Positions 1-11,716 of a stretch of DNA of 11,716 bases are shown one piece after another; the stretch's first letter is position 1, and each line of letters begins with the position of its first letter. Source of the DNA: Dehalococcoidia bacterium (GTDB lineage Bacteria > Chloroflexota > Dehalococcoidia > GIF9 > UBA5629); assembly GCA_050011565.1 (NCBI GenBank), contig JBEKIW010000008.1, positions 1 through 11,716 of the forward strand. Direction: 5' to 3'. Position numbers and translations under genes: made by a program. The notes under the pieces were generated by a model that saw only the letters and a program-made list of their open reading frames with translations, was not told the origin of the DNA and made no database searches.

Positions 1-356
1 AACACGTACTCTTGCGAATCTGGCCAGTTGAAATAGGTGTTGAAGGCATCTGGCTTGCCGTCGGTTCTAAAGACGCGGTTGTAGCCACTCGTCAGGACCA
101 GCAGGGTCTTTTTATCCGGACTCACCAGGGTAGTAGCCGCCTGCCCGGCCAGCCAGTTTGGATTGTCGGCCAGACCGGGATTCAACGGTTCAAATGTGGA
201 ACCCTGGGGTGCCAGCGGCGAAATCTGTTGGCCCATATTGGGTAGGAACTGGATGCCCTTCGGGGTTGGTTGGGGCACTGGAACGCACGAACTCAGGACA
301 GTGGCGGCAATAACCAGCACAGCCACCCACAAATAAGCCATACGACGGATTTTCAT
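1..356 (-). CDS. 5' part of an exported lipoprotein, probably YncE-like beta-propeller / alkaline-phosphatase (phosphoesterase) family; runs off the window edge and is absent from the ORF track
   Basis: ATG at 356 with AGGAGGGG SD at 363-370. Frame is open to the window edge: MKIRRMAYLWVAVLVIAATVLSSC|VPVPQPTPKGIQFLPNMGQQISPLAPQGSTFEPLNPGLADNPNWLAGQAATTLVSPDKKTLLVLTSGYNR...SQEYV. Basic N-region, hydrophobic core and LSSC lipobox. SPDxKTLLVLTSGYN looks like a propeller blade; family assignment is from recall. Confidence 0.75.
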   Translation of the reverse strand, partial: MKIRRMAYLWVAVLVIAATVLSSCVPVPQPTPKGIQFLPNMGQQISPLAPQGSTFEPLNPGLADNPNWLAGQAATTLVSPDKKTLLVLTSGYNRVFRTDGKPDAFNTYFNWPDSQEYV

Positions 357-603
357 TTCTTTCCCCTCCTTGGTGTTTAGTCACAAAAGATCACTTACAT
401 TAACCACTTTTGTGAAGGTATGTTGTTTGGTTAAACCGGGGCTATAGTGCTGTCAATGATTACCTGAAATATGTCTTGCCGATTTTTCAGGTATTCCTCC
501 CTAGATATTGTTTTTATGTTATAACGCTTCTGCATTATTCCACTTATTACCTTTGGTTTTTCCTGTCACCTTTCCTGTATAAAAGTGCCGTAAAATACAA
601 AGA

Positions 604-663
604 CCCATTTCAAATCGCAACTAAGCGATTATCAACCATTATCCTTCCCTTGTCATGATCATA
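604..663 (-). repeat. Copy 1 of a conserved promoter-proximal element (candidate leader RNA or operator)
   Basis: 604-639 matches 1889-1924 at 30/36 positions ungapped; contains inverted repeat AATCGC-N6-GCGATT. Confidence 0.8.
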
Positions 664-686
664 TTTCCTTTCTACGTGGTTGTTAA
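658..686 (-). promoter_or_regulatory. Sigma70-type promoter for the lipoprotein gene ending at the left edge
   Basis: Minus strand TTAACA (686-681) - 17 nt - TATGAT (663-658). The -10 aligns with the TATAAT of repeat copy 2. Confidence 0.55.
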
Positions 687-790
687 TGCCACTATATCTC
701 ATACAGCAGAGATGGATATTCGACAGTCCCCTATAACAATCAACTAACTGTACCAAAATAACTATCAAACTCATTTTAATTTGAAAACGT

Positions 791-1822
791 CTACTGTTTG
801 CCTAAGAACTTATTAACTCTGTTTTGAGCATTCGCGCGAAGATTGTAGTAGTAAAAAGGAATATCAAAGCTATGGTAAACCCCACTAGGGAATGCTCCTG
901 GATTTTTAGTTGATGGTCCCGGAGACCAGAGACTTGCATCAGCAGTACTGCAAATCAAAACACCGTTAGTTTTATCGATCCTGGCATCAGCGTACTGCGG
1001 CTCTTGCTGCCAGGATACAAAATTCGGCGGAATTGGCATGAATGATCCCTGGCCTTCGCCAGTGGTTGCTAATGTTTCGTCTGTCTTCCAATTGATCGGA
1101 TTTATGACACGACCAACCATGCCATATAAGACTGGATTGATTCCACCTATCACAGGAGCTTGAGTGTTATATGAAATTATCACTCCAGTGTCATCAGGAC
1201 CTGTGGCAAATTTCAGGTGCTTATTATTATCAAGGTATGCCTGAGTTACTGGATGGCCGATAACGTATGCAGCAACCATATTTTTATTTACCTCCGGGTG
1301 ATCTTTCATGTATCCGGACAACAGGTTGCTTATTACAGTTGCGCCTTGCGAATGTCCGACTAAAATAAACGGACGGCCGTTGTTGTAGTGCTTGATATAG
1401 TAGTCGAAGGCCGCAACTGCATCCAATGTCGGTATGCCTGCTATAACGTTTAATCGATCGGTTGACGACAAGTTATCTTGTCTATAGTATGGCGCGTAAA
1501 TATTACCTACGGTTTCAAAAGCAGTAGCTTGTCGTGCAAATGCTGCGGGTGCCTGTGTTAACATGGTTGGTTCGTCGATAGCACAAATCTGTGGATTATT
1601 AGGATCAGTACTCGTCCAGGCTGTTGGGTAAAGGTAAAATACATCTACTGCTTTGACTGTAGCAGGTAAAGACAACCAATGCGCAGTTTGTGAGTAATCA
1701 GTAGCTGGTTCCTTACAGCTTGCCGAAAGCAGTCCTGCCGCGACTGCGCCCAGCGCCAACACGACGATCCCCGCTGTTTTGATGAAACCGCGACGCGTAA
1801 AGCCCCAATTAGTATCAGACAT
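791..1822 (-). CDS. DUF3089-family alpha/beta hydrolase (putative esterase) with Tat-lipoprotein signal
   Basis: 343 aa; AAGGAG SD; TRRGFIK twin-arginine motif and LSASC lipobox; VDVFYLYPT, IYAPYYRQ, RPFILVGHSQG nucleophile elbow, INPINW, YHSFDIPFYYYNLRANAQNR motifs. Confidence 0.88.
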   Translation of the reverse strand: MSDTNWGFTRRGFIKTAGIVVLALGAVAAGLLSASCKEPATDYSQTAHWLSLPATVKAVDVFYLYPTAWTSTDPNNPQICAIDEPTMLTQAPAAFARQATAFETVGNIYAPYYRQDNLSSTDRLNVIAGIPTLDAVAAFDYYIKHYNNGRPFILVGHSQGATVISNLLSGYMKDHPEVNKNMVAAYVIGHPVTQAYLDNNKHLKFATGPDDTGVIISYNTQAPVIGGINPVLYGMVGRVINPINWKTDETLATTGEGQGSFMPIPPNFVSWQQEPQYADARIDKTNGVLICSTADASLWSPGPSTKNPGAFPSGVYHSFDIPFYYYNLRANAQNRVNKFLGKQ

Positions 1823-1888
1823 ACTTGTCCTCTCCTTTTAGCAGGTTCAAATTTTCTTTACTTCAGTTTTACTCATTAACCGGGATTT

Positions 1889-2298: not shown

Positions 2299-2982
2299 TC
2301 ACGAAGGTTTTGCCCATAGATTCTCATACCATCGGCGATGTTCTTCACCCGCAACCTTCCGATATCTCGCTGTGGTATTGAAACTGGCGTGGCCCAGGTG
2401 CTCCTGAAGCAGGCGCAGTGCGTCGCCGGAGTCGTCGAGCTTCATTGCGTGAACGCTGAAGGCATCCCTTAGGCGGTGAGGGCTAATGCCCCTCACCCTT
2501 CCTGTTTCAGGATTCACCAAATCCGGAAGCCCTGCTTTACTAGCACAGTCCCTGACTATCTGCCAGGCTCGATGCCGGTTCAAACGGAAGATCATCTCCG
2601 AAGTACCACTGCTGGCTGGCCGATTACTAATGTAGTGCTTCAACATCAGCATGGTGCAATTGTCAACAGGTAACGTTCTCATGCGTCGTTTCTCTTGCTG
2701 ACGCTTAGTAGCCTCATTGACTTCCTCCCCGCAGCTAGGGCAGAATTGATGTCTCTTGGCTAGTCTCGCCTTGCACTTCGGACAGGACAGCCTGATGCGC
2801 GTCTTGAGATGCAGGATTGTCACAGTACCTTCCCCGAAATCAATGTCGCCTGCCTTAAGCGCCAATGCCTCTGAAACTCGACAACCCAAGCGAAACAGAA
2901 GCCTGATAAGCAACCTATCGCGCAGGTGGCTGGCAGCTCGCTCCAACAGTTCTACGTCAGTAAGGTCAAGATAAGTTTTCAT
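2299..2982 (-). CDS. Tyrosine recombinase/integrase, catalytic domain only, with inserted C4 zinc ribbon
   Basis: Catalytic residues R (LGCRVSE), K (HLK), HxxR (SPHRLRD), H (LGH), Y (TTARY); CPKC-x10-CPSC insertion. Preferred start MKTYLD at 2982 (227 aa); upstream in-frame ATGs at 3006 and 3051 are possible. Confidence 0.92.
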   Translation of the reverse strand: MKTYLDLTDVELLERAASHLRDRLLIRLLFRLGCRVSEALALKAGDIDFGEGTVTILHLKTRIRLSCPKCKARLAKRHQFCPSCGEEVNEATKRQQEKRRMRTLPVDNCTMLMLKHYISNRPASSGTSEMIFRLNRHRAWQIVRDCASKAGLPDLVNPETGRVRGISPHRLRDAFSVHAMKLDDSGDALRLLQEHLGHASFNTTARYRKVAGEEHRRWYENLWAKPS

Positions 2983-3114
2983 CTCCTGATTCCGTTGGCA
3001 AATCATCTCTCTTGTTTTCCTTGGTATGACTCGGCCCTCTGAAAGGAGCATCTATAACCTGTAGCCTGAATGGGATGACTGAATATGCCGTAAGCGACGG
3101 TAAAAATTGCTGTA

Positions 3115-4608
3115 GTGGTAGGTCTCGATGCTCAGTTGTTTGAGGTTGAAACGGATATTTCGATTCGTGTTTCAACATTGACCATCGTCGGCCTGCCCGA
3201 TACCGCAGTACAGGAAGCCAGAGAACGCGTCCGGGCGGCCATACGTAACTCCGGCTGCACTTTCCCCATGAGGCGTATAACGGTGAATCTTGCCCCTGCT
3301 GATTTAAAGAAAGCCGGTCCCGCCTACGACTTGCCCATCGCTGTCGGCATATTGCTCAGCTCCGACCAGATATCTGCCGATGTCTCCAAAACGCTTTTCC
3401 TGGGCGAGCTTTCCCTTGATGGCAGCGTGCGCCATACCCAGGGCATACTGCCCATGGTGGCTCTGGCTCAAGAAAAAGGTGTACCGGAAGTCTTCGTGCC
3501 GGCGGATGATGCCAACGAGGCTTCAATGTTAGACGGCATTAAGGTCATGCCATCCATCTCATTAGCCCAATTAGTCAGCCACCTTCGCGGAGAGCTATCG
3601 ATTCCTCAGTACCAGCCGGATAAAGACTGGAGACACGTTACCTCTGATTTCGCCCATAGCGACCTGGCCCATATAAAAGGCCAGGAGCATGCCAAACGTG
3701 CTCTGGAGGTAGCGGCGACCGGCGGCCACAATGTAATTATGTCCGGTCCGCCGGGCAGCGGCAAGACCATGCTGGCCCGCTCATTGCCCTCCATTATGCC
3801 CATGATGACCTTAGCCGAAGCCTTGGAAGTCACTAAAATCTACAGCGTCAGCGGTCTTCTCTCTCAGGACACGCCGCTTATAAACCAGCGTCCCTTCCGT
3901 TCGCCTCATTACACCATCTCCCACGCCGGACTGGTCGGCGGCGGACACTGGCCTCGACCCGGCGAAATAAGCCTGAGCCATCGCGGCGTGCTCTTCCTCG
4001 ACGAGTTCCCCGAGTTCAGCCACATGTCTCTGGAATCGCTGCGCCAGCCGGTTGAGGACAAGGTGATTACCATCAGCCGTGCCCAGGGCAGCGTCACCTT
4101 TCCCGCCAACTTCATGCTGGTAGCTGCCATGAACCCATGTCCCTGTGGCTATTTCGGTGACCCGGTAAAAGACTGTAAATGCTCCTCCGGCGAAATCTCG
4201 AGCTACCAGAAGCGGCTCAGCGGCCCGCTTCTCGACCGCATCGACATCTTCATCGAAGTTCCCCGTGTCGAATACGAAAAGCTCACCGATGATTCCGTAG
4301 GCGAAGGCTCGGATAAAGTTCGTAGCCGCGTTGAGACCGCCAGGCAGATTCAGCAAAAGCGCTTTCAAGGCACCAAGCTTACCTGCAATGCCGAGATGAC
4401 TCCCGTAGAGGTCAGGGAATTCTGCCGTGTCGAGCCGCCGGCTCAGAGCCTACTGCGGACAGCCATGAAACAGCTCCACCTTACCGCCCGTTCTTTCCAC
4501 TGCGTCCTCAAACTAGCCCGCACCATCGCTGACCTCGACGCCGCCGACATTATCAAAGCCAACCACCTCGCCGAAGCCCTCCAGTACCGCCAGCGAAGCA
4601 CAGGATAG
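3115..4608 (+). CDS. comM: YifB/ComM family Mg-chelatase-like AAA+ ATPase; 5' end apparently disrupted or replaced
   Basis: TIVGLPDTAVQEARERVRAAIRNSG, ITVNLAPADLKK, GPPGSGKT Walker A, RPFRSPHYT, LFLDEFPEF Walker B, AAMNPCPCG, SGPLLDRID, ARTIADL. GTG start lacks an evident SD; upstream in-frame ATG at 3085 is followed by TAA at 3091. Confidence 0.93.
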   Translation: MVGLDAQLFEVETDISIRVSTLTIVGLPDTAVQEARERVRAAIRNSGCTFPMRRITVNLAPADLKKAGPAYDLPIAVGILLSSDQISADVSKTLFLGELSLDGSVRHTQGILPMVALAQEKGVPEVFVPADDANEASMLDGIKVMPSISLAQLVSHLRGELSIPQYQPDKDWRHVTSDFAHSDLAHIKGQEHAKRALEVAATGGHNVIMSGPPGSGKTMLARSLPSIMPMMTLAEALEVTKIYSVSGLLSQDTPLINQRPFRSPHYTISHAGLVGGGHWPRPGEISLSHRGVLFLDEFPEFSHMSLESLRQPVEDKVITISRAQGSVTFPANFMLVAAMNPCPCGYFGDPVKDCKCSSGEISSYQKRLSGPLLDRIDIFIEVPRVEYEKLTDDSVGEGSDKVRSRVETARQIQQKRFQGTKLTCNAEMTPVEVREFCRVEPPAQSLLRTAMKQLHLTARSFHCVLKLARTIADLDAADIIKANHLAEALQYRQRSTG

Positions 4609-11532: not shown

Positions 11533-11572
11533 TCACATTCTGAGTTTTTGTTAACAGAACCGAGAAGTGTGA
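11533..11572. terminator. Imperfect 40-bp palindrome between convergent genes, possible bidirectional terminator
   Basis: TCACATTCTGAGTTTTTGTT|AACAGAACCGAGAAGTGTGA. Confidence 0.35.
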
Positions 11573-11599
11573 AATGAAGTGCCAGCTTCTGCTCCTGTC

Positions 11600-11716
11600 T
11601 TATCGATTCCGTGGGGATAGCCAAACGATTGCAATACCCACCACAAACAAAATAAGTAAGTTGACAGCACTTTGTTCACTCGCTACCGCGAATGTAAAGA
11701 TTGGATCCACGAAAAA
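11600..11716 (-). CDS. 3' end of a membrane protein resembling DUF4118 (KdpD-type TM domain); absent from the ORF track
   Basis: Reads FFVDPIFTFAVASEQSAVNLLILFVVGIAIVWLSPRNR* from the window edge to TAA at 11602-11600; FFxxPxxTF followed by a TM helix resembles the end of DUF4118. Confidence 0.6.
   Translation of the reverse strand, partial: FFVDPIFTFAVASEQSAVNLLILFVVGIAIVWLSPRNR

Follow-up and report, generated by a model that had tools for sequence, protein, structure and literature searches.

The DNA analyzed here, referred to as the window, is an entire contig (C8, 11,716 nt) of the 2.0 Mb, 8-contig metagenome-assembled genome of a Dehalococcoidia bacterium, labelled G000. Positions 3181–3182 of the window are very probably the attR attachment site of a genomic island of ~21.6 kb that was inserted into comM by a large serine recombinase (LSR), splitting the gene at codon 32. 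In the proposed mechanism, the LSR would have inserted the island into comM codon 32, leaving on contig C6 an attL made up of cinA, comM codons 1–32 and the convergent LSR gene, and a comM-derived surrogate 5' end would have become fused in frame, via an arm of the element attachment site attP, to the remainder of host comM. The window features at this junction are as follows:

3085 to 3156, + strand: comM-derived surrogate 5' end, codons 1–24, in frame with host comM and broken by the TAA at 3091–3093.
3115 to 4608, + strand: longest open reading frame (ORF) of the chimeric comM, 497 aa from GTG3115, ~10 N-terminal residues short.
3157 to 3180, unstranded: P arm of attP (element half-site), encoding ISIRVSTL in the comM frame.
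3181 to 3182, unstranded: crossover dinucleotide AC of attR, with its attL counterpart at C6:75407–75408.
3183 to 4608, + strand: part of comM that derives from the host, starting at the third base of codon 32 and ending at the stop, otherwise intact.

Direct reading and translation confirmed that the ATG at 3085–3087, the following CCG, the TAA at 3091–3093 and GTG3115 share the comM frame, as reported in an earlier sequence-only reading of this stretch, and translation from ATG3085 gives MP*ATVKIAVVVGLDAQLFEVETDISIRVSTL (asterisk, stop codon) and then TIVGLPD. The GC jump noted there at the TIVG codons was recomputed as 25/60 in 3121–3180 vs 41/60 in 3181–3240, with the step at 3181. The rest of comM was likewise found intact, with ORF 3115–4608 carrying the three ComM domains (PF13541, PF01078 and PF13335) in a Pfam scan, scoring 605 bits against TIGR00368 (cut-off 362) and matching ComM in PDB entry 8rxd (E=3.4e-114, the match starting at residue 12 of the chain), so that its product is predicted to be a member of the YifB/ComM family. 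The native ComM N-terminus (the first ~31 residues, conserved in relatives) is absent from the window, its place being taken by a diverged surrogate, interrupted at codon 3, together with residues encoded by the attP arm.

The native 5' end was found on another contig. A tblastn search of the comM frame against the whole G000 genome gave a weak match on C6 which, when read directly, proved to be an orphan comM 5' end at C6:75314–75408, encoding a perfect ComM N-terminus from the start codon at 75314 through codon 32. The orphan lies directly downstream of cinA and breaks off at the TIV codons into unrelated, stop-containing sequence; both the existence of such a fragment and its location at the far end of the island had been anticipated from the window alone. 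When C6:75314–75408 and window 3183–4608 were joined by slicing, the product was a comM of 506 codons with no stop, identical at 468/506 positions to the 506-aa ComM of the closest relative. As had also been expected of relatives lacking the island, a normal N-terminus like that of the C6 orphan is present in all 29 relatives with near-full-length comM, and cinA is immediately upstream of the intact gene in 13 of these 29 loci, all from the same family. None of the 29 comM loci contained the LSR, the tyrosine recombinase or the DUF3089 gene described below, and the cinA–comM loci are the empty sites. Elsewhere among the relatives, genome G016 has comM codons ~33–209 deleted beside its LSR island, comM of G103 has an internal TGA, and comM is split into adjacent pieces in G007, G012 and G014, which suggests that comM is often dispensable in this group.

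The point of exchange was located in an alignment of eight attL, four attR and seven empty-site sequences, with which two further attR junctions agree. In all elements compared, attL tracks the bacterial attachment site (attB) up to the AC dinucleotide and attR tracks attB from AC on, in line with the earlier suggestion of an att junction in this region. That suggestion included a short core shared by the two ends, which holds for the AC at 3181–3182 and not for anything longer, as attL and attR otherwise share scattered bases only, with no identical stretch of 6–8 bp. Serine integrases use a 2-bp crossover without a longer shared core, and there was therefore no long core to be found. Upstream of the AC, the window P arm is homologous to those of the elements in G186, G120, G103, G204 and G203, YCVPTL or a similar peptide being encoded elsewhere, and 13/26 positions are dyad-symmetric between it and the P' arm on C6, which 116 of 10000 shuffles also achieved. 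The first GLP motif of ComM would thus be missing from the window because the corresponding codons are a recombinase binding site, the attP arm, rather than decayed comM.

Immediately to the right of the C6 junction and convergent on the comM fragment is an LSR gene of 505 codons (C6:75405–76922), whose stop codon overlaps comM-derived bases. The encoded protein contains Resolvase (PF00239), Recombinase (PF07508) and Zn_ribbon_recom (PF13408) domains, has SprA (YokA; 9dxh, E=4.8e-19) as its closest solved LSR by sequence, and keeps 72/72 columns that are invariant among 12 aligned LSRs, R8 and S10 (catalytic Ser/Arg) included. Its reading frame is interrupted by an in-frame TAA at codon 191 (C6:76350–76352), a position occupied by G, S, R or H in relatives. 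This TAA recurs in a metagenome contig from a separate assembly (L059), 100% identical over 12,729 nt. The metagenome scan for an intact twin of the G000 LSR returned L059 with its TAA, a 56% homologue (L060) also at comM and more distant matches (25–46% identity), and no intact twin.

Across a survey of 202 genomes of the order, LSR homologues at E<=1e-40 were found in 25 (G000 included). At the seven best homologue loci (44–50% identity), comM codons 1–32 abut the 3' end of the LSR gene in the same arrangement as in G000, and an eighth locus, in G188, abuts comM codon ~345. A wider scan of species-representative genomes covered 80 loci, mostly from Chloroflexota metagenome-assembled genomes and overlapping partly with the genomes of the first survey; those holding the seven best loci were covered again. 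Here comM codons 1–32 abut the LSR in 12/15 full-length homologues at >=43% identity, more distant LSR clades abut comM codon ~49 (1 locus), ~220 (2 loci) or ~345–353 (3 loci), and comM is adjacent to the LSR in 18/80 loci overall. Judging by these loci, the conserved comM-targeting integrase is the LSR at the far end of the island and not the tyrosine recombinase adjacent to the surrogate, which is encoded as follows:

2299 to 3051, − strand: small tyrosine recombinase with a zinc-ribbon insert (PF00589, E=1.7e-19; 250-aa ORF).

The likely start of this gene is at 2982 (227 aa; homologues 227–229 aa), 103 nt from ATG3085, and the full ORF would reach to within 34 nt of it. No N-terminal core-binding domain was detected in the protein, and its NCBIfam matches, to XerA-like recombinases and invertases, are weak and all below cut-off. 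The divergent location of the gene near comM had been correctly described, and a position only 34–103 nt from the surrogate is what would be expected had this recombinase been both the integrase that targeted comM and the source of the 5' end. The integrase role did not stand. None of 24 homologue loci contains a comM fragment within ~1.5 kb of the recombinase gene, and DNA similarity to the closest homologue (91% aa identity) ends at the gene borders, with flanks that are unrelated between copies. In the comM islands inspected in relatives, the recombinase has zinc-ribbon-only matches in G186 and G016 and none in G120, G188 and G103. A tyrosine recombinase would be expected to leave an identical stretch of 6–8 bp in attL and attR, which is lacking here, and the junction coincides with the conserved site of the LSR family. 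Integration by the tyrosine recombinase, largely refuted by the homologue loci and the LSR site match, was therefore rejected as extremely unlikely, and the gene is better regarded, from its genomic distribution, as cargo or an independent unit. It has a paralogue in G000 (C4:161740–162426, 72% identical), around which no inverted repeats hinting at an invertase role were found, and the family occurs in 57/202 genomes of the order, often in multiple copies (up to 7).

The C6 part of the island covers 16.4 kb, from 75409 up to where the contig ends at 91847, and the joined island adds up to ~16.4 + 2.0 + 3.2 = 21.6 kb. The left part of the window contributes the following cargo:

1 to 356, − strand: 5' part of a phosphoesterase gene, 118 codons with a lipoprotein-type signal, running off the left end of the contig.
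791 to 1822, − strand: DUF3089 (alpha/beta-hydrolase-like) gene (PF11288, E=1.6e-43).
1998 to 2080, unstranded: 83-nt repeat, the other copy being inverted at C6:78182–78264 (91.6% identity).

Homologues of the phosphoesterase are 997–1024 aa long, and the left end of the window is the only 5' end of such a gene in G000. C6 terminates on either side in a copy of the phosphoesterase 3' end (C6:1–814 and 91034–91847), the two being inverted relative to each other and 96.6% identical; with two phosphoesterase copies in the genome, the assembly would have broken there. That the island continues from the right end of C6 to the left end of C8 is inferred from four observations that favor this join. 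First, in G189, from a different genus, a 3' part resembling the C6 right end (95.8%), a 1992-nt middle, the equivalent of C8:1–469 (96.2%) and DUF3089 are contiguous, the DUF3089 copy upstream of the phosphoesterase gene being 92% identical to that of the window. Second, the chromosomal phosphoesterase copy of G010 matches the C6 left end better (98%, extending past the repeat) and lies ~73 kb upstream of comM, the C6 left end being at the same ~73–75 kb distance in G000. Third, a second variant of the phosphoesterase 5' end, diverging at the divergence point of G010, is present in public run X1, a possible source sample of G000. Fourth, the 83-nt repeat has only two copies in the 2.0 Mb genome, one in each proposed part of the island. 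These copies bracket ~17.6 kb of cargo and may reflect either the duplication of a promoter region or a nested unit of which they form the ends.

The remaining cargo on C6 includes, besides the LSR, ORFs for a MerR-like protein, a 273-aa product without a Pfam match, a GNAT acetyltransferase and a nitroreductase, as well as an enoyl-CoA hydratase, an Lrp-type regulator, a carboxyltransferase, a thiolase, a zinc-ribbon protein, a TPR protein, a hydrolase and the phosphoesterase gene 3' end. No recognizable phage genes were found in the island in Pfam scans. The MerR-like gene beside the LSR was considered as a recombination directionality factor and set aside, there being no homologue in the islands of relatives. 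The phosphoesterase/DUF3089 module (window 1–1877; L080; L081) is 92–97% identical across genera and patchily distributed, occurring in 12/77 genomes of the family (G000 included in both numbers), which suggests that it has spread horizontally in recent time. At the other end of the window, positions 11535–11716 overlap contig C2 at its left end, the two being in opposite orientations (182 nt, 98.9%), and C8 probably continues into C2.

The sequence upstream of the P arm was examined with a 24-residue profile, built from the N-termini of the 29 relatives, which was run against every piece of a six-frame translation of the 2.0 Mb genome. The C6 orphan ranked first (E=3e-16) and the window surrogate second (E=0.005), the next match being at E=0.76; the likeness of 3094–3156 to the ComM N-terminus thus exceeds chance. 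The colinearity with a normal ComM N-terminus proposed in the sequence-only reading holds for this segment and fails for the last ~25 nt, which are the attP arm encoding ISIRVSTL. At the DNA level the surrogate shares at best 69% identity with the comM 5' end of any relative (from another family of the order) and 58% with that of its own host, and it appears to be an old copy of a comM 5' end. No comM-like sequence was found upstream of the P arm at the five other attR junctions inspected for it (G186, G120, G103, G204 and G203), so that the surrogate seems unusual among these comM elements. Comprising a ribosome-binding region and 24 codons, it presumably once allowed the host to retain a ComM-like protein. 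That an element-supplied 5' end is present and now broken, as had been proposed, agrees with the profile match and with the TAA at 3091. This stop was also found in a second assembly: the evidence from public runs consists of assembled Logan contigs, which drop rare variants, compared with the whole window for runs X1, X3, X4 and X9, and an X1 contig spans 2035–4095 with no differences, reproducing both TAA3091 and the junction. The two assemblies may derive from the same reads.

With a TAA at codon 3 of the surrogate and another at codon 191 of the LSR, the most likely present state would be a locked island, with comM inactivated or N-terminally crippled. The chimeric gene might instead yield a working ComM from GTG3115, TTG3178 or elsewhere, in which case the island would be neutral and its excision irrelevant. 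The 497-aa ORF covers TIGR00368 positions 7–499 of 499 and Pfam ChlI positions 1–120 of 121, and the comM remainder is conserved. Moreover, in six elements (window 3178–3180; L054, L055, L058, L187 and L188) the P arm has an in-frame TTG or ATG immediately ahead of the crossover, so that each integrated element could in principle start ComM without residues 1–31. Against this, no Shine-Dalgarno-like sequence precedes GTG3115 as judged by eye, in agreement with the earlier observation, and a simple, weak scan of the interval that separates the recombinase from the surrogate (2983–3085) found no promoter-like site. The window ORF lacks ~10 residues at the ComM N-terminus as well as the first GLP motif, all of which are kept in 29/29 relatives. 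The comM remainder also deviates at 1/190 columns invariant in 28 relatives (Arg to Ser), whereas eight controls deviate at 0/189, and it carries 8 private changes vs 1–9 in relatives. A still active comM is considered unlikely on this evidence.

The sequence-only reading had gone further and proposed that excision would restore comM, making the island a gene-integrity switch. In sequence terms, an intact comM would still result if attL and attR recombined at the AC, the two halves being undamaged and joining cleanly in frame over 506 codons. It is the operating switch that is called into question by the TAA in the LSR. For the switch to work, the LSR would have to be functional, the TAA being an artefact of the assembly or population or being bypassed, and the island would have to excise under some condition. 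The LSR does keep every invariant residue bar one codon, and both att arms are preserved. In addition, comEC and dprA are both encoded in G000, so that transformation may matter to the organism and the loss of ComM, whose role in transformation is taken from other bacteria (PMC11472951), could matter for it. Nevertheless, the stop at LSR codon 191 occurs in two assemblies, and the other LSRs in G000 are only 23–25% identical to the comM-site LSR, which makes help in trans unlikely. Islands of the same kind have decayed in place in relatives, as seen in the G016 deletion and the G103 TGA. Neither a restored comM nor a circular form of this strain was found among the Logan contigs of X1, X3, X4 and X9, from which rare variants are dropped. 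In X1, depths to the left and right of the junction are similar (33–46) and a loose end at 3183 belongs to the intact comM of another organism; in X4, the inner attP arm is retained at loose ends at 3173, suggesting that this site is occupied by other islands. A working switch is accordingly judged quite improbable: the TAA in the LSR, together with the lack of any excised form among the contigs, makes a locked insertion the more likely alternative. Most likely, the insertion was recently locked, and the island is probably immobile now.

Several points weigh against a locked LSR island in comM. Its attL and attR are on different contigs of a metagenome-assembled genome, and the bin could mix strains. 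As the C6 ends are inverted copies of each other, C8 could instead join the other end of C6, which would amount to an inversion. Both TAA codons rest on assemblies that possibly share reads. The near-absence of decay in the comM remainder fits a recent insertion and equally a gene still in use, and GTG3115 or the in-frame TTG3178 could start a shortened ComM. Finally, no recombination directionality factor was recognized in the island.

The location of attP within the LSR reading frame may bear on this last point. In the integrated form, the LSR stop codon is made up of the crossover A and two bases of the comM Phe31 codon. In the excised (attP) form, as computed, five other elements (L054, L055, L058, L187 and L188) gain a tail of 19–24 residues with the shared motif S-[ML]-x-[GR]-H ... 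I-P-F, in the sole frame open in all five. At tail codons 9–19, beyond the P arm, changed codons are synonymous in 17/31 cases over four pairs. The corresponding tail in G000 runs through the antisense of the comM surrogate:

2966 to 3180, − strand: antisense open frame (ORF 2966–3178) that excision (attP form) would fuse to the LSR gene, adding 71 residues.

It is possible, though doubtful, that the free and integrated forms of the integrase could set directionality without a separate factor, and that the G000 surrogate is a rare case of an LSR element trying to preserve the function of its target gene, which rewrote the tail (71 vs ~20 aa) and perhaps aided immobilization. One precedent was found for an attP-dependent integrase tail, in the SPbeta-like Bacillus phage Goe14, where attP is in the 3' coding region of the LSR and integration truncates the integrase, the authors speculating on a regulatory role (bioRxiv 10.1101/2021.11.22.469490). 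The comM islands resemble Goe14 in having attP in the LSR frame and an integrase shortened by integration; however, the tail lost is 131 aa in Goe14 vs 19–24 aa (71 in G000) in the comM islands, the target is spoVK rather than comM, and the host belongs to another phylum.

A further trace of comM was observed on contig C1, where positions 499446–499539 are a stand-alone 94-nt copy of internal comM (window 4024–4117; 96% identical; codons ~314–344). The copy stops ~4–5 nt before the crossover of the second LSR clade (G188 and others, codon ~345), and the sequence that follows it faintly resembles the 3' end of an LSR of that clade. It looks like a relic attL of an element at this second site, moved into an apparent defence-gene region.

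LSR-run gene-integrity switches include the comK prophage of Listeria (A118-type), skin in sigK of Bacillus subtilis (SpoIVCA) and SPbeta in spsM (SprA). The G000 island resembles these in having a split host gene, an LSR at one end and a precise excision that would rebuild the gene. It differs in that its LSR is interrupted, no directionality factor was found, excision was not seen among the Logan contigs, and the island carries cargo without phage genes recognizable by Pfam. Insertions of this sort are common, and LSR targeting of the comM/yifB gene family has itself been published: Durrant et al. (2022) give 12.4% as the share of predicted site-specific LSRs whose targets are homologues of a Mg-chelatase/ATP-dependent-protease gene, and they report an enrichment of competence genes among LSR targets (PMC10083194). 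The elements described there share with that of G000 the same three-domain LSR and site-specific insertion within the comM coding sequence, many diverged LSR clusters having one target gene; the comM 5' surrogate and the nonsense-mutated LSR set the G000 element apart from them as far as they are described in that text. In Acinetobacter baumannii, comM is interrupted by AbaR/Tn7-like islands and other mobile elements, again with competence as the function expected to be lost (PMC11472951). Insertion there is in the Mg-chelatase domain and, for AbaR, proceeds via a Tn7-like transposition backbone, in contrast with the serine recombinase and codon 32 in G000.

The missing half of a split gene, located on another contig, was thus predictable from sequence alone. 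The surrogate 5' end, its overlap with the integrase tail and the integration-dependent tail itself are minor, testable peculiarities of the element, and the att sites defined here provide candidate recombinase/landing-pad pairs. More generally, LSRs have repeatedly landed in comM in uncultured Dehalococcoidia, at a minimum of four sites (codons ~32, ~49, ~220 and ~345), a pattern relevant to the question of how natural transformation is suppressed or tolerated by mobile elements in environmental bacteria.

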